Shown piece by piece: positions 19,386-39,460 of a stretch of DNA of 55,029 nucleotides. The DNA is from a virus (Duplodnaviria > Heunggongvirae > Uroviricota > Caudoviricetes), in IMG/VR virus record IMGVR_UViG_2859793810_000007, one strand, 5' to 3'. Position 1 is the stretch's first letter; the number at the start of each line of letters is the position of its first letter. Below the pieces are notes generated by a model. That model was given only the letters and a program-made list of their open reading frames with translations. It was not told the origin of the DNA and made no database searches. A program made the position numbers and the translations under genes.

Positions 19386-20891
19386 TCATGGCATGGCCAT
19401 GAGCATTTTCACGTCCGCATCACCGTCTGCTGACGTCTGTGGCACGCCACCCTGTACCGCTGCCGGTGAATGGTTCGCCATGAAATGTTCAAACATGGCG
19501 GTTGTGGATGCAGAAACCGGTTCTGCCCTGCCTGAGGCTGCCGCCAGTACAGCCCGGGCATTCTCCACGGTCATCCCCGGACAGGCCGCCAGTTTTTCAG
19601 CCTGCGCCTCTGCCCCTTTTGCCTCATCCAGGGCCATAATCTGATCACGAAGTGAGGGTCCGGCATTCGCCTGCGGTGAAGCAGCCAGAATCGGACGGGC
19701 TTTTTCCACCGTCATCTCCGGCATCGCCGCCAGCGTTGCCGCCAGTTGTTCACGTCCTTTCGCCTCTTCACATGCCATAATGCGATCGGCTTCACTCTGC
19801 GCAGATACACCAGATTGTTGCGGTGCCGCCACGGCCAGAATCGCCCGGGCCTGCTCAACGCTCATACCCTGTTGCCCTGCCAGCATCGTGGCCAGTTGTT
19901 CACGTCCTTTCGCTTCCTGACACGTCAGGATCCCCATCACTCGCTGGTTCTCCTGCGCGGCAGCCTCCGTTGCAGTTAATTGCGGCATAGTGCCTCCTGT
20001 ATCGTGTGTGTTCAGCGTCGCAGCCATCACGCTGATGGCGTCCGACGCATTGATTAATTCATCCGCCAGTTCGGCCTCAATACCGGACTGACCTTCAAAA
20101 ACGGCGGCCTCTGTTCCCATAACCGCATCCACAGATAAACCGGTATACATCGCCACTTTTTCAGCAAACATCCGGCGCGCCGCATCAATGCGCTGCTGCA
20201 TGTCCTGGCGAACCTTTGCTGGCAGGGATTCAAACTGATTGCCATCCACCTTGTGCGATCCGGCGTAAATCAGCGTGATATCCACACCGGCCTGTGCCAG
20301 ATGACCGGCATAGCTGACATGGCCCATCATCACCCCAATGGAGCCGATACGGGATGTCTGGGTAACCAGCCGTCGGGAGCAGGCCGATGCCAGTAACATG
20401 GCGGCTGAACAGGCCGTGTCATTGCACAGTGCCCAGACAGGCTTCAGCTGCCGGAGACGGTAAATCATGTCAGCGCAGTCAAACGCGCCGGTGGCCTGCC
20501 CGCCAGAACTGTCAATGTCCAGCAGTACGCCCCGTACCTGAGTGTCCGCCATTGCCTGCTGAAGACAGGCGACAATGCCGTCATAGCCAGTCATTCCGGA
20601 AAATGGCCGCATGCCACCCAGCCGGTGTACCAGCGTGCCGGTCACCGGCAGTACAGCAATACCGTTCACCACCCGGTAAACACGGGCAGGTCGTTTGCCT
20701 CCGGCCATGTACTCGTCCGTTTCAGCCAGCATCCCGGGAGCGTCAAGCTGTACCTGCTGTTGCGGTACCGAAAGGCTTGCTGCGCCCATCTCACGCCCGA
20801 GCGCGCAAAAGAAAACCCGCGCATAGGCGGGCTCCAGAAGCAGCGGCTCATTGAATGCCGCAGCGATAATATGTGAAAGATTACGTCTCAC
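19386..20891 (-). CDS. C: prohead protease/scaffold C (with in-frame Nu3)
   Basis: 501 aa; AFNEPLLLEPAYARVFFCAL...GSIGVMMGH... matches lambda gpC (S49-type protease). Confidence 0.85.
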   Translation of the reverse strand: MRRNLSHIIAAAFNEPLLLEPAYARVFFCALGREMGAASLSVPQQQVQLDAPGMLAETDEYMAGGKRPARVYRVVNGIAVLPVTGTLVHRLGGMRPFSGMTGYDGIVACLQQAMADTQVRGVLLDIDSSGGQATGAFDCADMIYRLRQLKPVWALCNDTACSAAMLLASACSRRLVTQTSRIGSIGVMMGHVSYAGHLAQAGVDITLIYAGSHKVDGNQFESLPAKVRQDMQQRIDAARRMFAEKVAMYTGLSVDAVMGTEAAVFEGQSGIEAELADELINASDAISVMAATLNTHDTGGTMPQLTATEAAAQENQRVMGILTCQEAKGREQLATMLAGQQGMSVEQARAILAVAAPQQSGVSAQSEADRIMACEEAKGREQLAATLAAMPEMTVEKARPILAASPQANAGPSLRDQIMALDEAKGAEAQAEKLAACPGMTVENARAVLAAASGRAEPVSASTTAMFEHFMANHSPAAVQGGVPQTSADGDADVKMLMAMP

Positions 20892-22474
20892 GTGATGTTG
20901 TCTCCTCTTCCGGCCTGCGACTCTCCGCTATCTGCTGCTGATACGCCTGGGCTATCCACACCGGACGTGAGAGTCCGGCTTTTTCGCGCTCTGCGGATTC
21001 CCTGACCTGCTGGCGGAAAATGTCCTGATAATCTTCGCCCATCAGTGCCAGTTCTTTCTCATACGTGCTCAGTCCGGCCTCAATGCGCATCACCGATTCC
21101 TGGACCTCCTTGAGCCCGTCAATGGCCATTCTTCCGGAGCTAATCCACTCTGCCCGTGACCAGGCTGAACGCGCCTGGTAAAAATCAAAACGCGCCCGTG
21201 GCGGACGAATAATCCCCCGAAGAAGCGCCTCTTCCAGCCAGCAGGAAAACATCTGCGTGGCCAGCCGGGCCGCAATAAATTTTCGCCGCCCCATAAAATA
21301 GCGCCACGACTCATTGGCGGAGGCGCGGGCACTTGAGTAACTGACCTTCGAGTAATCACGGGACAACTGTTCGTAGGAAACGCCAAGACCGGCTGCAATA
21401 TACCGCAGCAGCGCCTGTTCAAGCGCCGAAAATCCATTGTCTGAATCCTGCGCTGTCTGCAGGTTCAGCGCATCGCCAGGAAAAAAGGTGCGGAATTTTA
21501 ACACCGCCCAGCGTCACGTTATTCGTGTCATACCAGCGGGTGAACTTCTCCAGAATATTAATAAGCGGATTATCCTGCTGACCTTGCGGTGCCCCCGCGA
21601 TATATTCAAATGCCTTTTCGGTATCAAGTTCACTTTCGATTGTGGCTGCATACATCGCCTTCACAATGGCCGACTGAAGCTGCGTGGCCTGCAGGGAGTC
21701 CAGCATCTTCATCCGCTCCATTACGCTGTAAAACTGATTAGCCCCACGGGTCTGCCCGTCCTCCACCGGCTCAAAAATATGCAGCATGGCCGGACGCCCG
21801 GTGGGAAGCTCACGCGGGATCCGCTCCCAGCGTCCGGCACCAGAGAACGGAAAATCATCCTCACAGATATGGTACGCAATCGCCCGCCCATACCGATCGA
21901 CCTCAACCCCGGCCCGCAGAAAGTGGTTCCCCATACCGTGTCCTGGCGTGTCCACCCGTTTCGGACTCACGGCTTTAAAACGCGTACGGAATAACTGCGT
22001 GGTTTCCGTATCCCAGACCGGCTGCACAAAGATTTCGCCGTTAAAGGCATGCACGCCCACCCCTTCACGGATAAATTCCGTAAACGTGCGTTTCCCTTCC
22101 ACGTCGATCTCGCCAAACATTCCTTCTGCGTATTCCGACCAGGCTGCTTCCACCTCCCCGACAAAACTTTTTGCCGTGGTCTCCCGCATCCCCAGCCAAC
22201 GCCAGTTCAGACGGTAGCTGATAAGAAACATGTGCCCGACGATATGATCCTTATGCAGGGCCACCGCATTAGCCGCGATACCGTTATTGCGCACCAGATC
22301 ATCTGCCCGGGCATTCCCCAGACGCAATGCAGGCAACAGGGCCGCATCGGCACTCTGCGCCGGTGGTAACCACTCTGCCATTTGCCCGCCAAATCCTGCG
22401 CCGCCTCCGTTGTAGCTGAGACTCTCACGAAGCGGAACGCCGTTCACATCAATCAGGACAGGCGTTCGTTTCAT
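20881..22474 (-). pseudogene. B: portal protein B, split by a frameshift
   Basis: 351-aa and 207-aa ORFs both match lambda gpB; junction GGVKIPHLF / PGDALNLQTAQD falls on the T6 run (plus-strand A6, 21481-21486). Confidence 0.8.
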
Positions 22475-22674: not shown

Positions 22675-24585
22675 TCACTCCTCCGGACAGCTTCGCTGCC
22701 AGTTCTTCAAGGGTCGGTTGTGCAGTTGCATCCTTGCGGGATGCAACTGCACAGCCAGATCAAGTTGCCAGCGTTGCACGGACACACGTAATGCCGCATA
22801 GGCATACACCAGGCAGTCCAGCGCTTCGTTACGCCGCTTTTTGTTATCCCACAACAGACGCATCTTTCCTTTTTCCCACTTTTCCACCAGTTCCTCCGCC
22901 ACCAGTTGTTGTGCCTCTGTCTGCGAAAAAATCTCCGGATTATCAGGAAAGCGGATGGCATACGATGTGGCCTCATTCACAGGGGTGGGATCGGCCTTCA
23001 TTCGGGCATAGAGAATTTCTTTTGCGGTATCCGTCCCCACCTCACACAGATACACACCCCGCTGATTGCGGGTTTTCGGCATGGTGATCACCGGCTTGCC
23101 ATAGACAGAGGCACCTTTTACCGGCAGTACCCGGAAAATACCGTGTTTTTTTGACCTCTGATACACGATTTCGCCATCGATCCCCCCGATATCCCAGCAG
23201 ACACGGGAAATGGTCATTTCGGTACCGTCTGCATGGCGGTATTTTTTATTGATCGCCGCATCCACACGTAACAGCGTCTCTTCCTCATCAGGACGTCCCA
23301 TGATGATGATTTTATCCACCAGAAAGGCTTCCTCTCCCGGAGCCCACCCCCAGACATACATCTCAAAACGGTTTCGCTGCGAGTCAATGCCCGCCGTCAG
23401 ATAAACCACCCGGACAGGCACCGTTGCCGTGTAAGGCACAACCTTATCCATCAGTACCTGGTGATCGAGTTTTTCGCCCACGGCCTCTTCCCAGGTCTCG
23501 CCCAGCGTGGTGTTCACAAAAGTTTTCACGCCGTTGGGATCTTTCAGTGCATCCAGCCAGTCACAGACTATCTGTACCCTGGTGGTGAACGGACTGTACG
23601 CCGTCCATATATGGAAAGTGATGGAGCGCGGCGGCGGAATTTCATTACCCGAAGCACTGAAAAACGTCAGACCGTCACACGTCCACATCCCGGTATTGTC
23701 ACAAATCCAGCGCCCCCCGGTCTGATCAAGTTCAGACTGACGGATCACGCAGCCATTATGTTCACACAGGTAATACACCGTTTCCGGTTTACCCTTCTCC
23801 CATTTCAGGCCAAACGACGTCGCATCATCGCCAAACTTCAGATACTGCTCCTCCCCGCAATGAGGGCAAGGGACATAAAACCGCATGAAATGCGCAGATT
23901 CATTCGCAGCTTTTTCAATCTGACAGGAGCCTTTAATTTTTGGCGTTGAACCGCGTATGGATTTTGGCCATACCGAACCTTCAATACGTTTATCGCCAAG
24001 CAGTGTTGGCGAACCTTCTTTTTCCACATCCGGTTCAAACGAGGAGAGTTCGTCATAGCAGACCACATCGACAGATTTTTCACGGTAGTTTTTGGCAGCA
24101 GCACCACCCAAACACCAGAACCCCACACCAGAGGAAAAACGCTTCAGTGTGAGCGTATTATCCCGGTGTTTCCGGCCCAGCCAGGGAGAAAGTTTTTTCA
24201 GGCAAGGAACATCACGAATTGTTGCTTCCACGTGAGACTTCATAAAATCTTCAGCAGCTGAGTCCGTCGGCTGAAAAAGAAGAGTGTTGCGGGATTTGTG
24301 CTCAATAAAATACCCGATCACACCAAGCACCATTTTTGTATAACCAACACGGGCAGATTTAATCAGGTTAACTGTACGAATCTCGTCATTGCCCATGCAG
24401 TTCATGATGGCGACCTGAAACTGCAGCGTTTTCCATTCCCCCTCACCGTATGACGATTCTTTAGGCAGGTAATAATTTTGATCGGCCCATTCTACAGCCG
24501 TCACCGGCAATACCCTGACCAGTGGCTGCAGTGCGATAGTGACTGCCACCATCATATTACTCAGTTGTTGTTCTGATATATTCAT
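22675..24585 (-). CDS. A: terminase large subunit A
   Basis: MNISEQQLSN... and long collinear match to lambda gpA; ATG at 24583-24585. Confidence 0.9.
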   Translation of the reverse strand: MNISEQQLSNMMVAVTIALQPLVRVLPVTAVEWADQNYYLPKESSYGEGEWKTLQFQVAIMNCMGNDEIRTVNLIKSARVGYTKMVLGVIGYFIEHKSRNTLLFQPTDSAAEDFMKSHVEATIRDVPCLKKLSPWLGRKHRDNTLTLKRFSSGVGFWCLGGAAAKNYREKSVDVVCYDELSSFEPDVEKEGSPTLLGDKRIEGSVWPKSIRGSTPKIKGSCQIEKAANESAHFMRFYVPCPHCGEEQYLKFGDDATSFGLKWEKGKPETVYYLCEHNGCVIRQSELDQTGGRWICDNTGMWTCDGLTFFSASGNEIPPPRSITFHIWTAYSPFTTRVQIVCDWLDALKDPNGVKTFVNTTLGETWEEAVGEKLDHQVLMDKVVPYTATVPVRVVYLTAGIDSQRNRFEMYVWGWAPGEEAFLVDKIIIMGRPDEEETLLRVDAAINKKYRHADGTEMTISRVCWDIGGIDGEIVYQRSKKHGIFRVLPVKGASVYGKPVITMPKTRNQRGVYLCEVGTDTAKEILYARMKADPTPVNEATSYAIRFPDNPEIFSQTEAQQLVAEELVEKWEKGKMRLLWDNKKRRNEALDCLVYAYAALRVSVQRWQLDLAVQLHPARMQLHNRPLKNWQRSCPEE

Positions 24586-24864
24586 CGAGTAAATCCGGTA
24601 ATTTATCCCCCGCACGCGCGCACTGATTCGCTCCCTTAGCAATAAGGATTTTCAGATGATCAATATGACGCGGCGTTAAATCCGGGAACTGTCGTTGCAT
24701 GGACAAAGGAATGGAGTCAAGCGTACTGGATAAAGCCATCGCCAGCTTACTAAGGGCAAAAATACAAAATCCGGTATCGATAAGATTTCCTTTTGACACC
24801 TGATTTTTTAACTGCTGTGCGACAGCCTGTTCTGCGGTCAGTTCCCATCTGGCAATGAGTAGTT
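24557..24864 (-). pseudogene. Nu1: terminase small subunit Nu1, 3-prime fragment (5-prime part replaced by IS600)
   Basis: ...TGFCIFALSKLAMALSSTLDSIPLSMQRQFPDLTPRHIDHLK... matches the C-terminal half of lambda Nu1; ORF runs into the IS600 end. Confidence 0.75.
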
Positions 24865-24907
24865 TGAGGTGTACTGGCAATAGCGGACACTACCATTTGT
24901 TCTTTTT

Positions 24908-25726
24908 TTAAGCAGCCATCTGATGATATTTTTCCCTGAAGGCTGCCGGGGAGATATTCCCCAGACGAGAGTGACGACGCTGACGATTGTAGAAAATCTC
25001 AATGTATTCCCGTATTACTGAGATGGCTTCATCCCGGTTATTAAAACGATAGTGGCTCAGGCTCTCATTTTTCAGCGTTCCCCAGAAGCTTTCCATCGGA
25101 GCATTGTCGTAACAGTTACCTTTACGCGACATTGATGTTTTCAGACCAGACTGCTCCTGTATGACCCGGTAATCGTATGCGCAGTACTGTGAACCTCGAT
25201 CAGAGTGGTGGATTAGCCCGGCAGGTGGGCGCTGGCTCCTGAGCGCCATAAACAGGGCTTTACCTGTCAGCTCTTTTGTCATGCGCTCTCCCATGGCGTA
25301 GCCGACAATTTCACACGTATAAACATCTTTGATGCCAGCGAGGTACAACCATCCCTCCTGTGTGGCAACATACGTCAGGTCCGCCACCCAGACCTGATTT
25401 GGTGCTGTAGGAGCGAACGTCTGGTTCAGCAGATTTGGCGCAACTGGCAGATTGTGGTTCGGGTTCGTAGTCGCTCTGAACTTGCGTTTCTGCTTACAGC
25501 GTAGCCTTAGCTCCTTACGAAGACGTGCCAGTCGGTCACGACCAACGATGATGCCATTCTCTGCCAGCTCCGTCTGGAGCCGCCGGGTTCCATATGTTTC
25601 GCGAGTGCGGATATGTGCCACCTTAATCTCCGGTTTTAGCCGCTCATCACTTTGTTTTCTGTCTGAGGGTTCATGCTGTACCCAGTTGTAATAACCGCTC
25701 CTGGATACACCAAATACCTGACACAT
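24908..25726 (-). CDS. IS600 transposase OrfB (DDE integrase domain)
   Basis: 272 aa; ...HSDRGSQYCAYDY... IS3-family catalytic region. Confidence 0.9.
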   Translation of the reverse strand: MCQVFGVSRSGYYNWVQHEPSDRKQSDERLKPEIKVAHIRTRETYGTRRLQTELAENGIIVGRDRLARLRKELRLRCKQKRKFRATTNPNHNLPVAPNLLNQTFAPTAPNQVWVADLTYVATQEGWLYLAGIKDVYTCEIVGYAMGERMTKELTGKALFMALRSQRPPAGLIHHSDRGSQYCAYDYRVIQEQSGLKTSMSRKGNCYDNAPMESFWGTLKNESLSHYRFNNRDEAISVIREYIEIFYNRQRRHSRLGNISPAAFREKYHQMAA

Positions 25727-25761
25727 CGCTTCAATGGGAAATTGTTGTCGCCATTGTTCGA

Positions 25762-26064
25762 TTAACGCGTATTTTTCAGCGACTCCTGTGCAAAATACGC
25801 TGTTGCTTTTTTTAATATATCTCGCTCAAGGCGAGCTTCATTTAACGCCTTACGCAGTTGCAGAATTTCAGATTCCAGTTCAGCCAGCGTGCGGGAACCA
25901 GGAGTACCGAGCCCTTTTCTGGCGGCGGTAACCCATTGTCCTAAAGTGCCTTCAGGAAGAGATAATCGGGAAGCGCCTTCACTGATCGAAAGTTGATTTT
26001 CAAGAACCGTTCTGACAGCTTCGGCTTTGAACTCTTTAGAGTAACGTTGGGTTTTTCTGCTCAT
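25762..26064 (-). CDS. IS600 OrfA (HTH/leucine-zipper)
   Basis: 100 aa MSRKTQRYSKEFKAEAVRTVLENQ...; A AAA AAA slippery motif near its 3-prime end for OrfAB fusion. Confidence 0.9.
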   Translation of the reverse strand: MSRKTQRYSKEFKAEAVRTVLENQLSISEGASRLSLPEGTLGQWVTAARKGLGTPGSRTLAELESEILQLRKALNEARLERDILKKATAYFAQESLKNTR

Positions 26065-26128
26065 TATTAGCTCCTTCTGATGCCATTCTATTTCAGGAAG
26101 GAGTGTCCGTTAAACTCAGGCTACCTCA

Positions 26129-26530
26129 CCCGTCCCGGATACCGAGAACGTTTCGTCCAGCAACTGGAGAGAGTTCGACGGTGGCATCATTGCCCATGCC
26201 GGAGGCGCTGGAGGTTTCGGCTGAGGATGGCACAGGGCATTTTCCTTTGACGAGCACCCGACCACCATTATCAAGCTTGCGCCGAAGAGCATCATTTTCA
26301 GCTTTCGCATCAGCTAACTCCTTCGTGTATTTAGCATCGAGTGCATCAGCATCACGCTGGCGCTGCTGCATGTCAGTAATGGTTGCGTTCGCCAGCTTCA
26401 GTTCTCCGGCGTTTTTGTCGCGCTGCTCTTTGTAGGTAATGGCGTTATCACGGTAATGATTAACAGCCCATGACAGGCAGACGATGATGCAGATAACCAG
26501 AGCGGAGATAATCGCGGTGACTCTGCTCAT
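26129..26530 (-). pseudogene. Rz: i-spanin Rz, 3-prime truncated by IS600 (Rz1 o-spanin embedded at 26129-26310, also truncated)
   Basis: [34 protein letters not shown]... like lambda Rz; +1-frame [24 protein letters not shown]...PPAPPAW is Rz1-like (lipobox, Pro-rich); both read into the IS. Confidence 0.7.
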
Positions 26531-27060
26531 TGATCTATCCCCCAACAGGCTAATGCGCTTTCCTGGTCACGACGAATAACCTGTCCATAGCAGTTATTTG
26601 AACGTATGCGGCAATCGCGCCCAACATCTTTTATCCACCAGCGAATCGCCTCGCATGCGCCCTTACGATCACCGGCATTCAGCCGCTTATAAAACGTCGA
26701 CGGGAAACACTTACCGGGGCCAATGTTATAGGGGCAAAATGACGCTATACCCGCTTTCTGGGGTTCGGTCAGAGGTACTTTAATATTGCGCTCCACCCAT
26801 GCCAGCGCCTTATCACGTTCAATAGCGTTAACCTGGTCACATTTTTCCTTCGACAGCTTCATTCCCGGTATGACAGGCTTACCATCCACCATTGTGGCAC
26901 CACGACAGATGGTCCATATGCCAGAACCATCACGGTATGCCGTTGTGTGATTACCCTCTTTTTCGTTCAGAAACTGGTCAAGTATCTGGGGAGCAGACGC
27001 GCCTGCGGCAATCAGCGCCAGAACAGCAGCCGACAGGCCGTATTTGATTTTTGCGCTCAT
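26527..27060 (-). CDS. R: SAR endolysin (T4-lysozyme-like muramidase with N-terminal signal-anchor-release domain)
   Basis: 177 aa; N-terminal Gly/Ala-rich weakly hydrophobic segment [18 protein letters not shown]...D...T catalytic pattern like phage 21 R. Confidence 0.85.
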
Positions 27061-27125
27061 GGATATTTATCAGGATTTATCGGCAACAAATAACGAGCCA
27101 ACTTATATACGCCTTTTAAGATAAG

Positions 27126-27755
27126 TCAGCCCCGGCTGGATCCAGTCATCAGGCTCTTTCTTAAAGGGGGAGTATTGAAATCACGAAGAAGAGCCTCCCG
27201 CACCGCAGCATCCATGTCTGCACCACTGGCAAGTGCTTCAATCTCTGCCGCCACCTGCAAATACCCCATGCAACGGCCAATGCGTTTCATAACTCTGGTG
27301 TTTTCGTCTTTCAGGCATCTGATAGCGAGATTAATAATTTTCAGGCAGTGATGATGCGATGCCCGGACAGGTTTTCCGTTCTCATAAACGACGAACTCAC
27401 CCTCTTCACAGGAAACCCTGAAAGGCCGATGGGGTTCCTGGTCTTTATCCGGTGCAGACGCAATAAAATCACTTTTATGCTCTTCCTCTCCGGCACTGTT
27501 AACCGTAATGACGTACTCAGGCCGCAGGTAAGCCGCCTCTTTTTCTGACAATGCGGCCGGTAAAAACTTTTCCTGCAAAAACTTCATAAAAGTCTCGTGA
27601 GCGACTTTGTGGCAGTAATCGTAAATCGCCGCATAATGCTCATCGCGGCGTTTGTTTTCATCTTCAGAACTCACCAACGCCGACAATTTTTTATTAAGCT
27701 CAGTGATTTCATTTTCCAGGTGATTGAATCGCTGATTCATTTCTTCATGCTTCAT
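27126..27755 (-). CDS. hypothetical 209-aa protein inserted between holin and endolysin (candidate moron)
   Basis: clean ORF with ATG at 27753-27755, 3 nt after the holin stop; acidic, coiled-coil-like N-terminus, His/Cys cluster HHHCLKIINLAIRCLK...RIGRCMG; no family recognised. Confidence 0.5.
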   Translation of the reverse strand: MKHEEMNQRFNHLENEITELNKKLSALVSSEDENKRRDEHYAAIYDYCHKVAHETFMKFLQEKFLPAALSEKEAAYLRPEYVITVNSAGEEEHKSDFIASAPDKDQEPHRPFRVSCEEGEFVVYENGKPVRASHHHCLKIINLAIRCLKDENTRVMKRIGRCMGYLQVAAEIEALASGADMDAAVREALLRDFNTPPLRKSLMTGSSRG

Positions 27756-27758
27756 TAT

Positions 27759-27974
27759 TTACTCTCCCCGTGCAGCCTTACGCTTGTCTTCTCTTATTTT
27801 GAAATACAGATTCGTCAGATAAGTCAGAAGCCCCAGAAGCAGACTTCCCAGCACACCAATCGCAGCCCACTGTGATGGCCTGACCTGATCCAACCACTGC
27901 AAAAACCAGTAGCCGGCACTGCCGGCGGAGGTGCCGTAGGCAATGCCCGTTGAAATTTTGTCCATGGATTTCAT
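27759..27974 (-). CDS. S: S21-type pinholin with dual start motif
   Basis: 71 aa [30 protein letters not shown]... near-identical in pattern to phage 21 S; Met1-Lys-Ser-Met4 dual start. Confidence 0.85.
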
Positions 27975-28266
27975 AGCCTCACCTCCGCAAATAACGGATG
28001 GCGTAGTTTTACACTGAGAAATGAAAGGGATTTGAAAAGAAAAAAACGCAAAAGCGGGCGAAACGATATATACAGTAAGGAAAGCACTCTATCCAACAAA
28101 CCACCCACAGTTAATCGGAATAAAAGCAGAGTGCTTATGAATGATCGCACGCCCGAAGGTTAGTATTTCTGCACAGCAATTTTGCAAAAAAAGGCGATCA
28201 TTCATAACTTAAACGTCTTTCAGTCACTCCGGGATTTCCCATCATCGCAGACTGAAAGACTCTGAC

Positions 28267-28341
<75 letters not shown>

Positions 28342-28344
28342 ATA

Positions 28345-28420
<76 letters not shown>

Positions 28421-28422
28421 GC

Positions 28423-28499
28423 TGGCCCACCACCGAGGACTCGAACCTCGCACCGTCAACTTAGAAGGTTGATGCTCTATCCGGATGAGCTAGTGGTGG
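28423..28499 (-). tRNA. tRNA-Arg (anticodon UCU)
   Basis: rc CCACCACTAGCTC...TCAACCTTCTAAGTTGA...GGTGGTGGGCCA; anticodon loop CUUCUAA. Confidence 0.75.
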
Positions 28500-28500
28500 T

Positions 28501-28577
28501 TGGTGGCCCTTGCTGGACTTGAACCAGCGACCTGGCGATTATGAGTCGCTCGCTCTGACCAACTGAGCTAAAGGGCC
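28501..28577 (-). tRNA. tRNA-Ile2-like (anticodon CAU; could be Met)
   Basis: rc GGCCCTTTAGCTCAGTTGGTCAGAGCGAGCGACTCATAATCGC...; close to E. coli ileX-type sequence. Confidence 0.75.
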
Positions 28578-28663
28578 GGAGGCAGAATAATAACCATATG
28601 TCATCACATCTGCAAACTCATCTGACCACCAGCGTGTTTAACGTCCTGTACCGTTTTTCAGGC

Positions 28664-28690
28664 ATAAAAAACCCGCCCGGAGGCGGGTTT
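28664..28690 (-). terminator. rho-independent terminator between Q and the tRNA array (tR-prime-like)
   Basis: minus strand CCCGCC-UCCG-GGCGGG hairpin followed by UUUUUU; lies about 90 nt downstream of the Q stop. Confidence 0.5.
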
Positions 28691-28776
28691 AAGCTGTGTG
28701 GCGAAGCAACCACTCTTAACAGAATATCCCGTTTTTTACGTACGTAAAATATTTTCTAGAAAGTCGCCCCTTACCA

Positions 28777-29157
28777 TCAGGGATGTTCAATATATTTGTC
28801 CATTTCTAACCGGACACCCAACATCATCAACATTCCTTCCACCACCCCCTCGGCTTTTTGTAGCTTCTTTCCTATATAACCATCTGAGCATCCATGCTTC
28901 CGCGCCAGCGTCATGAATGTCATCCCAAACACGTAGTAGTCAACCAGCAAGTCATGTAGATCGTTGTTGTTCCGGTTAAGGCGGGCCATACACCCACATA
29001 TAACCATCGCGTCATCGTCACAGCATTGCGGGCGGGATTTTACTTTTGAAGGGATTAATCCCTTAAAACCGGCAGCAATGGACGACCAGGTCACATCCTC
29101 ATGATTATTAGCCACCCACGCGCCCCAGCGCTCAAGAACCTGCTGAATATCACGCAT
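28777..29157 (-). CDS. Q: late antiterminator Q (82/933W-type)
   Basis: [34 protein letters not shown]...[17 protein letters not shown]... recognised as the Q family of phage 82/Stx phages; position directly upstream of terminator and tRNAs. Confidence 0.75.
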
Positions 29158-29702: not shown

Positions 29703-31090
29703 AAGAAACGCTCCATCTTACTGCTGTCAGTTCGTTTATTACTGTATCTGCGCGGATTGCCGGGCTTCATGGGAGTGGAAAGCACCCGTGCACTTTCCTG
29801 GTCCACAGGCAGAAAATGTCCGTTATAAAAACGCCGGTAAATCGTTCCCAGAGAACCGTTACGTTGTTTCGTGATATTGATTTCTGCGATGCCCCTGGCC
29901 TGCGTATCCGGGTTGTACACTTCATCCCTGTAAAGCATCAGAATGATGTCTGCATCCGCCTCTATTTCTCCGGAATTTTTCAGGTCTGAGTTCATGGGAC
30001 GTTTATTGGGTCTGGACTCCACACCGCGGGAGAGCTGGCTCAGCGCAATCAACGGAAAACCACCGGATTTTGCCAGGCCTTTAAGCCCCTTTGAGATTTC
30101 ACCCACGGCAAGGTCATGACGCCCCGTGGTTCGGGTTTTTATCAGCCCGAGATAATCAACCACCACCAGCGCCGTTTCCGGATATTTAATCAGGTGGTGT
30201 TTCGTTGTTGCGCATATCTCATCAATGGCCAGGTTCGCCTGGTCCACCATCCAGATATTGCGCCCGGTCATCCGCCCCACCCCTTGTGAGAAACGCGTCC
30301 AGTCTTCATCTTCAAAGTGAGCCACAGATTTCAGGCGTGATACTGGCATCCCTCCAGCCGCAGACACCATACGTTCACCAATCTGGATGTTCGCCATCTC
30401 CATGGTGAACAGAAGCACACCATGCCCCTGCTCAGTCACCTTGTCGATGATGTCCAGCGCAAGTTCGGTTTTCCCCATCGAAGGACGGGCGGCAATGAAT
30501 ACCAGGTCTCCGGGCTCCATACCGCCTGTTTTTGCGTCCAGTTCATCAATACCGGTCATCAACGTCCTGGATTTCTCCAGCCCCTGATTCCGGCATTCAA
30601 CACGCTCAACCACTTCCGGAAGCACATCATCAATATGTACCGGCTGAATGACGCCCTTTCCTGTCGACAGTGTGACCATCATGTTCTGCGCATCCTTCAG
30701 GGCATCTTCAGCTGCTTCACAGGTATGCGCATCACGTAATTTCTGCAGCGCCTCATTCAGTGTTTTTTCTGCATCGCGCAGTGCGGCATTGCGCCGCAAC
30801 GCTGCAACATAGTGCTCCAGTGAAGACTTCACCCAGGTTTTACGCCCGGTATCAGTAATCACCGGGGCAAGTTCCGGCATCTCATTACACAACAGCACGG
30901 GGTCAATCACTCCTGAAACACGGGCCTGTCTGCAGATGCCTGTATAGATATCCTGATACGCTCGTACAGAAAAAACGTCCGCTGGCAGTGTGGCCAGAAT
31001 ATCCATCACTTCAGGATCTGCTCCGCGCAGAAAGAACGCGCCGATGACAGCGCCTTCAAGGTCATCGTTACGCCATACTGGAGTTGTCAT
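29699..31090 (-). CDS. replicative DNA helicase (DnaB family)
   Basis: 463 aa; Walker A ARPSMGKTELAL, Walker B VVVDYLGLI, C-terminal RecA-like fold motifs. Confidence 0.9.
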   Translation of the reverse strand: MTTPVWRNDDLEGAVIGAFFLRGADPEVMDILATLPADVFSVRAYQDIYTGICRQARVSGVIDPVLLCNEMPELAPVITDTGRKTWVKSSLEHYVAALRRNAALRDAEKTLNEALQKLRDAHTCEAAEDALKDAQNMMVTLSTGKGVIQPVHIDDVLPEVVERVECRNQGLEKSRTLMTGIDELDAKTGGMEPGDLVFIAARPSMGKTELALDIIDKVTEQGHGVLLFTMEMANIQIGERMVSAAGGMPVSRLKSVAHFEDEDWTRFSQGVGRMTGRNIWMVDQANLAIDEICATTKHHLIKYPETALVVVDYLGLIKTRTTGRHDLAVGEISKGLKGLAKSGGFPLIALSQLSRGVESRPNKRPMNSDLKNSGEIEADADIILMLYRDEVYNPDTQARGIAEINITKQRNGSLGTIYRRFYNGHFLPVDQESARVLSTPMKPGNPRRYSNKRTDSSKMERFF

Positions 31091-31965
31091 GCAGCCACAC
31101 CTCTGATACGAGAACGGTAACTGGGCCAGTTAAACGACAACCAGTTGCGTCCCCCGTCTGTGATCCTGTCGGCAATTCGGGGACTGATGAACGCCCACAA
31201 CTCTTCCGGTGAGAGGTTACTGATCAGAATGGTGGGCAAGATACTTTCGTACCTGGCGTTGATAATTTCCTGCAAAATAGCCATTTCAGCCGCGCTGCCA
31301 AACTGAACGCCAACTTCGTCGATGATCAGCAAATCCATTGACGCATAACGCTCAATAACTTCATCCGCTGTTTTTTCGCTGTCATTCCGCCAGCAATTTT
31401 TCACAGCACGGGTAAGGCGCATCACGTCGGTGATCTCCACACTGGCCAGATAGTTACGGATGATGTGTTTTGCCATAGCCACAGCCAGATGATTTTTTCC
31501 GGTACCACAACTGCCGGTCATAACAAGACTGGTACCGTTCTCCAGCATATCTGGCCAGTTCTCCGCATAGCGGCGACAGGCCGCAAGATTTCTGGCTGCG
31601 CCAGGATTAACCTCCAGATAATTATCAAACTCGCAGTCCCGAAAACGCAGGGCAATTCCGGCGTTATCAGTCAGCTCTTCCGCCTTGATGGACGACAGCT
31701 CCATGGTCAAATCGTTGGCCTCAGCGATTAAGCAGTCAGGGCAGCATGAAATTTCTTCTCTGTCCTCGCCATTACGATCGCTCCACACCAGTATATGCGT
31801 GTGATATTCGCCATGTTTTTCGCAATATCCGCGACCTTCACGCATCAGGCAGGAACGATAAGGCCATGGCTTTTCGCCCTTCTGAGCAAATGCAATCTCT
31901 GCCCGTAACTCATCCATTCGCGCCTGTAGTCTTTTTTGTTGTTCACGCAGGTTAAACGTCATCAT
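31087..31965 (-). CDS. DnaC/IstB-like helicase loader (AAA+), with N-terminal Cys/His cluster
   Basis: Walker A GSCGTGKNHLAVA, Walker B LLIIDEVG; ATG at 31963-31965 with GAGGTGA RBS; stop overlaps DnaB-like start. Confidence 0.8.
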   Translation of the reverse strand: MMTFNLREQQKRLQARMDELRAEIAFAQKGEKPWPYRSCLMREGRGYCEKHGEYHTHILVWSDRNGEDREEISCCPDCLIAEANDLTMELSSIKAEELTDNAGIALRFRDCEFDNYLEVNPGAARNLAACRRYAENWPDMLENGTSLVMTGSCGTGKNHLAVAMAKHIIRNYLASVEITDVMRLTRAVKNCWRNDSEKTADEVIERYASMDLLIIDEVGVQFGSAAEMAILQEIINARYESILPTILISNLSPEELWAFISPRIADRITDGGRNWLSFNWPSYRSRIRGVAA

Positions 31966-32057
31966 CGCTGTCACCTCAGAATGTCTGAAGTGGCACACTG
32001 AATTTGGCCACCTGAACAGAGGTGATATGCTCACCTCAGAACAACACAGGTGCTCCA

Positions 32058-33226
<1,169 letters not shown>

Positions 33227-35060: not shown

Positions 35061-35335
35061 GATTCCCTCAGATTGAGATTTTTAAACCAGAAATCGACAA
35101 ACGAAATACTTAACCAGCCGTGGTTATAACCAGCGACCAGTAGCGATTTGATTTTTGATTTCATGGTTCACCTGTCGAAAAACACATAGCCAGTTTTCGA
35201 TACGGTGATTGCGGATGATGGTCTGGATTGTGGTTGAATGGTTTCTGGCTTCTCGTCGTTCCAGCGCTGACTGAGGTAGCCTGAGTTTAACGGACACTCC
35301 TTCCTGAAATAGAATGGCATCAGAAGGAGCTAATA

Positions 35336-35638
35336 ATGAGCAGAAAAACCCAACGTTACTCTAAAGAGTTCAAAGCCGAAGCTGTCAGAACGGTTCTTGA
35401 AAATCAACTTTCGATCAGTGAAGGCGCTTCCCGATTATCCCTTCCTGAAGGCACTTTAGGACAATGGGTTACCGCCGCCAGAAAAGGGCTCGGTACTCCT
35501 GGTTCCCGCACGGTGGCTGAACTGGAATCTGAAATTCTGCAACTGCGTAAGGCGTTAAATGAAGCTCGCCTTGAGCGCGATATATTAAAAAAAGCAACAG
35601 CGTATTTTGCACAGGAGTCGCTGAAAAATACGCGTTAA
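35336..35638 (+). CDS. IS600 OrfA
   Basis: 100 aa, identical family to copy 1; slippery A AAA AAA at 35587-35593. Confidence 0.9.
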   Translation: MSRKTQRYSKEFKAEAVRTVLENQLSISEGASRLSLPEGTLGQWVTAARKGLGTPGSRTVAELESEILQLRKALNEARLERDILKKATAYFAQESLKNTR

Positions 35639-35673
35639 TCGAACAATGGCGACAACAATTTCCCATTGAAGCG

Positions 35674-36465
35674 ATGTGTCAGGTATTTGGTGTATCCAGG
35701 AGCGGTTATTACAACTGGGTACAGCATGAACCCTCAGACAGAAAACAAAGTGATGAGCGGCTAAAACTGGAGATTAAGGTGGCACATATCCGCACTCGCG
35801 AAACATATGGAACCCGGCGGCTCCAGACGGAGCTGGCAGAGAATGGCATCATCGTTGGTCGTGACCGACTGGCACGTCTTCGTAAGGAGCTGAGGCTACG
35901 CTGTAAGCAGAAACGCAAGTTCAGAGCGACTACGAACCCGAACCACAATCTGCCAGTTGCGCCAAATCTGCTGAACCAGACGTTCGCTCCTACAGCACCA
36001 AATCAGGTCTGGGTGGCGGACCTGACGTATGTTGCTGGCATCAAAGATGTTTATACGTGCGAAATTGTCGGCTACGCCATGGGAGAGCGCATGACAAAAG
36101 AGCTGACAGGTAAAGCCCTGTTTATGGCGCTCAGGAGCCAGCGCCCACCTGCCGGGCTAATCCACCACTCTGATCGAGGTTCACAGTACTGCGCATACGA
36201 TTACCGGGTCATACAGGAGCAGTCTGGTCTGAAAACATCAATGTCGCGTAAAGGTAACTGTTACGACAACGCTCCGATGGAAAGCTTCTGGGGAACGCTG
36301 AAAAATGAGAGCCTGAGCCACTATCGTTTTAATAACCGGGATGAAGCCATCTCAGTAATACGGGAATACATTGAGATTTTCTACAATCGTCAGCGTCGTC
36401 ACTCTCGTCTGGGGAATATCTCCCCGGCAGCCTTCAGGGAAAAATATCATCAGATGGCTGCTTAA
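35674..36465 (+). CDS. IS600 OrfB, 9-aa deletion variant
   Basis: 263 aa versus 272 aa in the other copies. Confidence 0.85.
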   Translation: MCQVFGVSRSGYYNWVQHEPSDRKQSDERLKLEIKVAHIRTRETYGTRRLQTELAENGIIVGRDRLARLRKELRLRCKQKRKFRATTNPNHNLPVAPNLLNQTFAPTAPNQVWVADLTYVAGIKDVYTCEIVGYAMGERMTKELTGKALFMALRSQRPPAGLIHHSDRGSQYCAYDYRVIQEQSGLKTSMSRKGNCYDNAPMESFWGTLKNESLSHYRFNNRDEAISVIREYIEIFYNRQRRHSRLGNISPAAFREKYHQMAA

Positions 36466-36508
36466 AAAAAGAACAAATGGTAGTGTCCGCTATTGCCAGT
36501 ACACCTCA

Positions 36509-36598
36509 CTGATCCAACCACTGCAAAAACCAGTAGCCGGCACTGCCGGCGGAGGTGCCGTAGGCAATGCCTGTTGATATTTTTTCCATCTGATACAT
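36509..36598 (-). pseudogene. pinholin 5-prime fragment (second lambdoid lysis region, truncated by IS600)
   Basis: [30 protein letters not shown] then IS600 end; N-terminus differs from the intact holin at 27759-27974, so not a simple duplicate. Confidence 0.6.
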
Positions 36599-36630
36599 AT
36601 CCCGCCCCCCCGACAGACCTGTGCTATCGG

Positions 36631-36665
36631 AAAGAAAAAAGGCCATCAGCAAAACTCTGATGGCC
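36631..36665 (-). terminator. rho-independent terminator upstream of the holin fragment
   Basis: 9-bp stem GGCCATCAG/CTGATGGCC with 7-nt loop; on the minus strand followed by UUUUUUCUUU. Confidence 0.5.
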
Positions 36666-37277
36666 TGAATCACCTTTACCAATATTGTATGAAAAAACAC
36701 GCACGACTAATTGACAATAATTTTCATTTCCATTAAAAAAGATCGCGTAGCATTCTTAATTCATGAGGAACTTTACCCGCCAGCAATCTGAGTAGCGAAA
36801 GCTGTTCATCCCCAATGTTTTTGCTGGCGGGTCCTTTTTTCTACGGTCCTCCTCCCCGGAGGGGCATTTCATTATTTTTCTAATCGTTACTGGTGAGAAG
36901 GCGGAAGAAAAAGCCAGTTCTTCGCCCCTAAATAACAGCATGATTCCAGTCCATGCAAAATCTGATTTCCAGCTCACACATACCGAGCACTGTACAAAAA
37001 ACCGCCAACCAAGGCAGTTAAGAGTGTGTTCCCGGGGTTTGCTTAGAATATTTTGTAAGTTGTCCGAAGAGATATTTACAACACCAGAATGATGCATTAT
37101 CAGTCCCCTGCCAGAGGTTCACTACGTAACCTGACCGACAATGCACCATTCTGGTGCTGAAAAAAGAGCACTGGAACTGCAACAAAACAACATCACAGAA
37201 CAGGAGATGGTAAGGAGTCAGACATTCCCACACAATATTGTGTCAGTGCAAATAACAACCTTCGTCTCAAATCTCGC

Positions 37278-37352
<75 letters not shown>

Positions 37353-37355
37353 ATA

Positions 37356-37430
<75 letters not shown>

Positions 37431-37432
37431 GC

Positions 37433-37509
37433 TGGCCCACCACCGAGGACTCGAACCTCGCACCGTCAACTTAGAAGGTTGATGCTCTATCCGGATGAGC
37501 TAGTGGTGG
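37433..37509 (-). tRNA. tRNA-Arg (UCU), second copy
   Basis: identical to 28423-28499. Confidence 0.7.
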
Positions 37510-37510
37510 T

Positions 37511-37587
37511 TGGTGGCCCTTGCTGGACTTGAACCAGCGACCTGGCGATTATGAGTCGCTCGCTCTGACCAACTGAGCTAAAGGGCC
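37511..37587 (-). tRNA. tRNA-Ile2-like (CAU), second copy
   Basis: identical to 28501-28577. Confidence 0.7.
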
Positions 37588-38199: not shown

Positions 38200-38291
38200 A
38201 TTCCCCGTCTTACCGCCACTGAAGTGGCACACTGAATTTGGCCACCTGAACAGAGGTGATATGCTCACCTCAGAACAACACAGGTGCTCCA

Positions 38292-39460
<1,169 letters not shown>

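Follow-up and report, generated by a model that had tools for sequence, protein, structure and literature searches.

Lysis cassette of a defective lambdoid Shigella flexneri prophage: a phage 21-type pinholin gene, a probable 933W/RrrQ-type SAR endolysin gene, and spanin genes cut at an IS600 element

Organization of the lysis locus

The 55,029-nucleotide stretch of viral DNA analyzed here (IMG/VR record IMGVR_UViG_2859793810_000007, referred to at its full length as the window) contains the lysis cassette from the late operon of a defective lambdoid Shigella flexneri prophage. The cassette genes all lie on the minus strand and, read 5' to 3' on that strand, follow the order Q, four tRNA genes, the holin gene S, an accessory open reading frame (ORF) of 209 codons designated ORF209, the endolysin gene R, and the spanin gene Rz with Rz1 embedded in it, after which comes the insertion sequence (IS) IS600 (Table 1). 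An earlier note on this DNA had recognized a phage 21-type lysis system at 26527-27974, consisting of a pinholin with a dual start and an endolysin with a signal-anchor-release (SAR) segment. These coordinates are exact; ORF209 was absent from that note. For the lysis genes, PHROGs gives assignments consistent with those of Pfam. The gene order, including the embedded Rz1, and the underlying logic of a pinholin paired with a SAR endolysin are shared with phage 21 (OL657228). A phage 21-type pinholin together with a 933W/RrrQ-type lysozyme of the membrane-tethered type is a lysis module of an already well-described kind, and the gene set has already been annotated in S. flexneri and Escherichia coli.

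Table 1. Positions in the window and supporting evidence for the features of the lysis locus (aa, amino acids).
Feature	Positions	Strand	Basis
Q, late antiterminator, 126 aa	28777-29157	-	ORF; PF06530 recorded for the 126-aa product where the S. flexneri context is identical
Four tRNA genes, anticodons CAT, TCT, TGT, TCC	28267-28577	-	ARAGORN; cluster also annotated in relatives
Ribosome-binding region of S, GGAGGTGAGGCT directly 5' of the first ATG	27975-28006	-	Sequence reading
S, class II holin (pinholin), dual start, 71 aa	27759-27974	-	PF04971; identity to phage 21 S
ORF209, accessory ORF, 209 aa	27126-27755	-	PHROG 1085 'unknown function'
R, GH24 (T4-lysozyme-type) muramidase with N-terminal SAR domain, 177 aa, 933W/RrrQ type	26527-27060	-	PF00959; 92% identity to 933W R
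Putative SAR transmembrane segment, R codons 7-27	26980-27042	-	Hydropathy and composition
R catalytic triad Glu35-x8-Asp44-x5-Thr50, codons 35-50	26911-26958	-	Gapless alignment to R21
Rz, i-spanin, cut to 134 of 155 codons	26126-26530	-	PF03245 profile positions 1-104 of 126; intact Rz of L001
Rz1, o-spanin, embedded in the +1 frame of Rz, 64 aa versus 68	26116-26310	-	PF06085, 74.9 bits; intact Rz1
IS600 (IS3 family), 1264 bp; orfA 25762-26064, orfB 24908-25726	24865-26128	-	99.6-99.8% identity to annotated IS600
Small terminase gene (terS, Nu1-like), 3' remnant	24557-24864	-	PF07471 recorded for an identical 107-aa product from S. flexneri loci

The pinholin gene S

The S gene is orthologous to that of the phage 21 pinholin, with which it shares its dual start. 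Its product matches the Pfam family PF04971 ('Bacteriophage P21 holin S') with 119.6 bits against a cut-off of 26 and is identical to phage 21 S at 67 of 71 positions (94.4%), the four substitutions being S32R, V46L, F49L, and R64K. Residues 1-31 are identical throughout, including Met1-Lys2-Ser3-Met4 and the entire first transmembrane domain (TMD1). The start reads MKSMDK, with in-frame Met codons at 27974-27972 and 27965-27963 and a Lys codon between them, and the curated phage 21 record (OL657228) gives two products of S, the antiholin S21-71 and the class II pinholin S21-68. By the same reading, translation from the ATG at 27974 (Met1-Lys2) would yield an antiholin form of 71 residues and translation from the ATG at 27965 a pinholin form of 68 residues. 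According to the review literature, S21-68 and S21-71 come from a dual start and it is the additional positive charge that makes the antiholin. Two-Met starts also recur among 120 cluster representatives of the S family (MKSMD in 40, MYRMD in 24, MYQME in 8, MLRME in 5, and others), and Met-x-x-Met-[D/E]-Lys is a recurrent start arrangement in this family. The dual-start pinholin proposed in the earlier note is thus borne out by the phage 21 alignment, in which antiholin and pinholin are both annotated for an identical start, and by the family at large. The S protein of the Shiga toxin 2 (Stx2) phage 933W differs in that it starts with MYQMEK, without a basic residue between the two Met residues, and is 77.5% identical to the S protein described here.

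TMD1 (residues 7-28) is weakly hydrophobic, with 55% Gly/Ala/Ser/Thr and a Hessa sum of +6.4, while TMD2 (residues 33-58) is hydrophobic (Hessa sum +0.5) and is followed by a charged C-terminal tail. Residues G40, S44, and G48 of TMD2, which we take to be its GxxxSxxxG motif, are unchanged relative to phage 21 S. Position 32 (codon 27879-27881, minus strand) lies in the periplasmic loop and is Arg; among 100 representatives of the family this position is Ser in 58, Thr in 37, Arg in 4, and Asn in 1. The S32R substitution is fixed in the S. flexneri copies and does not occur in an otherwise 99.4%-identical E. coli relative. In the literature, S21-68 makes pinholes on the nanometer scale that depolarize the membrane without releasing a cytoplasmic endolysin, and the 94% identity to S21 suggests that S of this prophage would form pinholes as well. 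Upstream of the gene, a predicted stem-loop that may have a regulatory role covers the Shine-Dalgarno sequence, and the same stem is predicted in phage 21; the z-scores (-0.75 here and -0.37 in phage 21) are not significant.

The endolysin gene R

R encodes a muramidase of glycoside hydrolase family 24 (GH24) with an intact catalytic triad and an N-terminus of SAR-domain composition. The protein matches PF00959 with 85.3 bits (cut-off 22.3), a similarity that, like that of S to its family, greatly exceeds chance, and its triad, numbered E35/D44/T50 as in phage 21 R, aligns without gaps (HMMER) to the matching residues of R21 (3HDE) and RrrD (4ZPU). In 34-35 homologues of R, E35 and D44 are invariant and T50 is nearly so. 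At the N-terminus, Lys4 and Lys6 are followed by 21 uncharged residues (7-27), 52% of which are Gly, Ala, Ser, or Thr, and the Hessa sum of this segment is +4.1 as compared with -2.5 for the canonical transmembrane domain of Rz. The Gly/Ala-rich segment that the earlier note had seen at this end of the protein is therefore of the SAR type in composition, and it agrees with the description of SAR domains in the Mu-lysis paper, which treats Sec-dependent export, membrane tethering, and release or activation upon depolarization or by a pinholin as the definitive functional test.

R is nearly identical to the endolysin of the 933W/RrrQ type, and it shares with the R protein of phage 933W 92% identity overall and complete identity from Tyr7 to Pro24. 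R is also 100% identical to WP_001274722, a protein of intact E. coli prophages; some genes of this kind are labelled rrrQ in RefSeq, where near-identical R proteins have a neighbor in the S-R slot labelled 'YdfR family protein'. Identity to phage 21 R is about 30-37%, and R lacks the high identity to R21 or RrrD that a strict phage 21 cassette would need. R is further unlike R21 in being 12 residues longer and in having eight Cys residues and an extra Cys150-Cys157 loop. The term 'phage 21-type' can thus be kept for the mechanism but not for the orthology of R. The Mu-lysis paper, which comes from the Young laboratory, lists 'pZE12-933W-R' as carrying the SAR endolysin of phage 933W and reports that few cells become round with 933W R alone, as with R21, and many when a releasin is co-expressed. 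In a survey of Shiga toxin (Stx) phages, such endolysins were classed as SAR endolysins and as pinholin-paired in about 99% of phages.

SAR endolysins may be controlled in different ways, and in phage P1 Lyz a Cys in the SAR domain is required for disulfide isomerization. P1 Lyz shares with R the GH24 fold and an N-terminal SAR domain, and its active form (1XJT) matches the model of R with a template modeling (TM) score of 0.57. However, the first Cys of R is Cys52, and the first 30 residues are free of Cys in all 120 homologues inspected. As R, like R21, has no Cys in the SAR segment, a thiol switch of the P1 Lyz type is excluded and conformational control of the R21 type is the natural inference. 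The AlphaFold2 (AF2) model of R has a mean predicted local distance difference test (pLDDT) score of 82.6, and residues 11-35 form two short helices (pLDDT about 95) that are packed on the globular body. In Foldseek comparisons, the model matches full-length R21 (3HDE) with TM scores of 0.64-0.73 and truncated, inactive R21 with 0.52; other GH24 endolysins are also matched in the fold search.

It is conceivable that R is a conventionally secreted enzyme, in which case a cleavable Sec signal would allow immediate release into the periplasm and S would merely modulate lysis. The N-terminus has the n-h-c layout of such a signal (two Lys residues, a hydrophobic core of about 13 residues, and Gly-Ala-Ser-Ala), and the -3/-1 rule formally permits sites after Gly20, Ala21, Ser22, and Ala23. 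However, at the most obvious of these, the AxA site Ala21-Ser22-Ala23, the next residue is Pro24, and E. coli signal peptidase I (LepB) does not tolerate Pro at P1'. Most homologues of R keep a Pro within -3 to +1 of the AxA site (ASAP, APAP, APAS), while a few have ASAS without Pro, which leaves some room for cleavage. The use of 933W R, with its identical segment, as a SAR endolysin that causes little rounding without a releasin argues against secretion, as does the confidently modeled packing of residues 11-35 into the fold, which resembles full-length R21 and would be unexpected for a discarded leader. Moreover, a freely secreted active lysozyme would make its pairing with a pinholin pointless. 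We therefore regard conventional secretion of R as very improbable.

Truncated spanin genes and the IS600-linked deletion

The earlier note had described the spanin genes as cut by IS600 and the cassette as probably incomplete, and this proved exact, with the junction at 26128/26129. The stop codon of Rz arises at the IS600 junction, and the final 21 residues (IIRDQTALRTLQEYINTQCLN), including the C-terminal Cys, are lost. Rz1 ends in GEVA in place of the final 8 of 68 residues, with the last four codons and the stop codon supplied by the junction base and the IS end. The Rz protein has an N-terminal transmembrane domain, and a lipobox (VVGC) and a Pro-rich region are present in Rz1. As compared with phage 21, the C-terminal half of Rz is of a different sequence type in addition to being truncated. 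Published work indicates that spanin subunits bind via their C-termini, that the C-terminal Cys of Rz gives an intermolecular disulfide, and that spanins are dispensable only without divalent cations. Neither spanin of this prophage has an intact C-terminus, which is the site of Rz-Rz1 interaction. Because the C-terminal interaction region of Rz is lost, the Rz/Rz1 complex is probably dead, and the sequences suggest that disruption of the outer membrane by the spanin has probably been lost with it.

Although the truncation itself stands, it is not the result of a simple insertion. Insertion of IS600 with target duplication was considered and rejected, since the flanks of the element lie 2543 bp apart in the intact relative E. 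coli RMDEC364 (L005); homology to an intact E. coli relative, at 99.4% identity, ends at position 26130. With the extent set by BLAST coordinates against L005, the IS600-linked deletion amounts to approximately 2.5 kb and has removed the 3' end of Rz, a ParD/ParE toxin-antitoxin pair, a KilA-N gene, two small hypothetical genes, and the 5' part of terS. As this loss includes the 5' part of terS, the prophage is defective and cannot package its DNA. Other IS copies interrupt prophage replication genes.

The exact S protein is found in more than 4500 assembly blocks, 4.4-4.7-Mb chromosomes among them. The exact Rz/IS600 junction was found in S. flexneri SFBU1023, and the arrangement is fixed in many S. 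flexneri genomes. In CP026792.1 (L010, 5445-5912), the S32R allele occurs together with a complete Rz of 155 residues, and an IS3-family element lies farther downstream in the opposite orientation. The presence of a complete Rz alongside the same S allele in CP026792 indicates that the deletion arose within this lineage. The Rz truncation and the IS600-linked deletion could serve to mark a lineage within S. flexneri.

ORF209 in the S-R slot

ORF209 begins 3 nt past the S stop codon, with the Shine-Dalgarno sequence GGGGAGAG upstream, and is equivalent to the module found at the C-terminus of long YdfR/DUF1327 proteins. As compared with relatives of 217 residues, ORF209 has a frameshift at its 3' end, such that the last 12 codons are out of frame and the other frame encodes the conserved FKKEPDDWIQPGLTYLKRRI*. 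Searches of Pfam, NCBIfam, and PADLOC gave no match to ORF209, and no transmembrane segment was found by hydropathy. The AF2 model was poor (pLDDT 55; predicted TM score, pTM, 0.38), Foldseek against the PDB returned no match at E <= 0.001, and a sequence search of the PDB gave coiled-coil noise only. A profile search of 1.84 billion representatives recovered only 42 clusters (50% identity), ten of which were checked in Pfam and had no domain.

The slot between S and R is variable. S directly adjoins R in phage 21, and in 933W, an inducible phage with intact spanins, R directly follows S, so neither phage has a gene in the position occupied here by ORF209. The viable phages PhiR47_1 and mEp460 share with this prophage the layout of S, a gap gene, R, and Rz, and PhiR47_1 is particularly close, as its S and R proteins are identical at 68 of 71 and 174 of 177 residues, respectively, and the start context of R is the same. 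However, the gap gene of these two phages encodes a YdfR-family protein of 104 residues, and their Rz is complete (155 residues). Relatives of ORF209, either alone or fused to YdfR/DUF1327, fill the slot in many prophages, and distant relatives of the module occupy another late-region position, between Q and the holin gene.

Such a position raises the possibility that ORF209 is a working part of the lysis system, either in pinholin timing or as a regulator of SAR endolysin release, and that the cassette is a three-component variant. Its location between S and R, the spacing of 3 nt from the S stop codon, the good Shine-Dalgarno sequence, and the recurrence of its relatives in the same slot of many prophages all agree with this idea. 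However, ORF209 could be assigned no transmembrane segment, family, or fold, phage 21 and 933W have nothing in the slot and PhiR47_1 carries a YdfR gene alone there, the distant relatives of the module lie elsewhere, and a frameshift has cost the copy present here its conserved C-terminus. A lysis function for ORF209 is thus very improbable, and ORF209 is most likely an unrelated accessory gene of the 'moron' type in a variable slot and not a core lysis component.

Interpretation of the cassette

Taken together, the locus is very probably a cassette made up of a phage 21-type pinholin and a 933W/RrrQ-type SAR endolysin, with spanins cut by an IS600-associated deletion, in a defective prophage. 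The mechanism outlined here is drawn from the phage 21 paradigm, reviews, and general background, and the Sec-dependent export, membrane tethering, and depolarization-triggered release of R are predicted by analogy. If the operon is transcribed, R would be exported by Sec and held inactive at the inner membrane by its weakly hydrophobic N-terminal helix, while S68 would build up in the membrane under the delaying influence of S71, which has the extra Lys2. At triggering, S68 pinholes would collapse the proton motive force, and the SAR helix would then exit the bilayer so that R could refold around Glu35, as R21 does. The released R would break down the murein. Without a spanin, the expected end point of lysis would be fragile spheres, unless it is completed by shear or at low levels of divalent cations.

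Several observations weigh against this interpretation. Expression and activity of the cassette are predictions from its genes, and the prophage around it is heavily decayed, with IS600 and IS911-like insertions and a truncated terS. S carries the rare Arg32 in its periplasmic loop (4 of 100 representatives). The refolding mechanism of R21 is an extrapolation when applied to R because the two proteins are only 30-37% identical. The several -3/-1-compatible sites of R and the ASAS homologues without Pro also count here, and rules and homology make non-cleavage of the R signal no more than plausible.

Part of this evidence would fit an inert relic, that is, a cassette that is silenced by S32R, by a lack of late transcription, or by both, and whose intact ORFs have not yet decayed. 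The prophage is defective, given the 2.5-kb deletion, the truncation of terS and the spanins, and the IS insertions in replication genes; the 3' end of ORF209 is frameshifted and Arg32 of S is rare in its family. In addition, a scan of positions 26000-28900 for promoters and terminators gave counts no higher than those of shuffled controls, and we claim no promoter in this region. On the other hand, S, R, and Q have kept their full length, the catalytic residues of R are intact, R is fully identical to a protein of intact E. coli prophages, and the same alleles occur in thousands of assemblies. We consider a wholly inert relic rather unlikely. Moreover, this explanation concerns the present activity of the cassette and not its identity, and it is compatible with the assignment as a pinholin and SAR endolysin cassette.

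The Q-S-ORF209-R block is intact and near-identical across thousands of S. flexneri isolates, and the neighboring spanin, packaging, and replication genes have been destroyed. One could imagine that the block has been co-opted as a host-controlled, spanin-less module for autolysis or vesiculation, possibly with ORF209 as a modulator, but we regard this as very improbable, and recent inheritance of genes that have not yet decayed is compatible with the same evidence.

The pinholin and SAR endolysin paradigm is already established, as is its prevalence among lambdoid and Stx-type prophages, and the value of the assignment made here lies mainly in correct annotation. S should be annotated with both starts, R as a SAR endolysin of the 933W/RrrQ type, Rz and Rz1 as truncated, and the prophage as defective via an IS600-linked deletion.

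Neighboring genes and other prophage remnants

Upstream of the cassette, Q would be the predicted driver of read-through into the lysis genes, and its counterpart in L005 is annotated 'antiterminator Q family protein'. The tRNA cluster separates Q from S, a placement seen in many late regions of the lambdoid and Stx types. The tRNA gene at 28501-28577 (minus strand) is called Met (CAT) by ARAGORN, while RefSeq labels the same gene in relatives tRNA-Ile; we presume that this CAT-anticodon tRNA is a lysidine-modified species of the Ile2 type.

The window also contains a second late-region remnant. A duplicate of the tRNA cluster (Met/Arg/Thr/Gly) is located at 37278-37587 on the minus strand, and a second holin stub at 36509-36700 (minus strand) starts with MYQMEK, as in 933W, and is cut after approximately 30 codons by another IS600 copy at 35272-36508, which itself has an internal deletion of 25 bp. 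Two identical copies of an IS3-family element, with ORFs of 112 and 279 residues, lie on the plus strand at 32022-33226 and 38256-39460 and resemble IS911. One of the two interrupts the prophage replication gene at 31087-32058. Next to each copy is the start of a short ORF, identical in the two places, and this suggests that prophage remnants have rearranged with one another. Finally, the portal-like gene appears to be split into two overlapping ORFs (351 aa and 207 aa) at 20881-21504 and 21419-22474 on the minus strand, which points to a frameshift and to additional decay in the head module.

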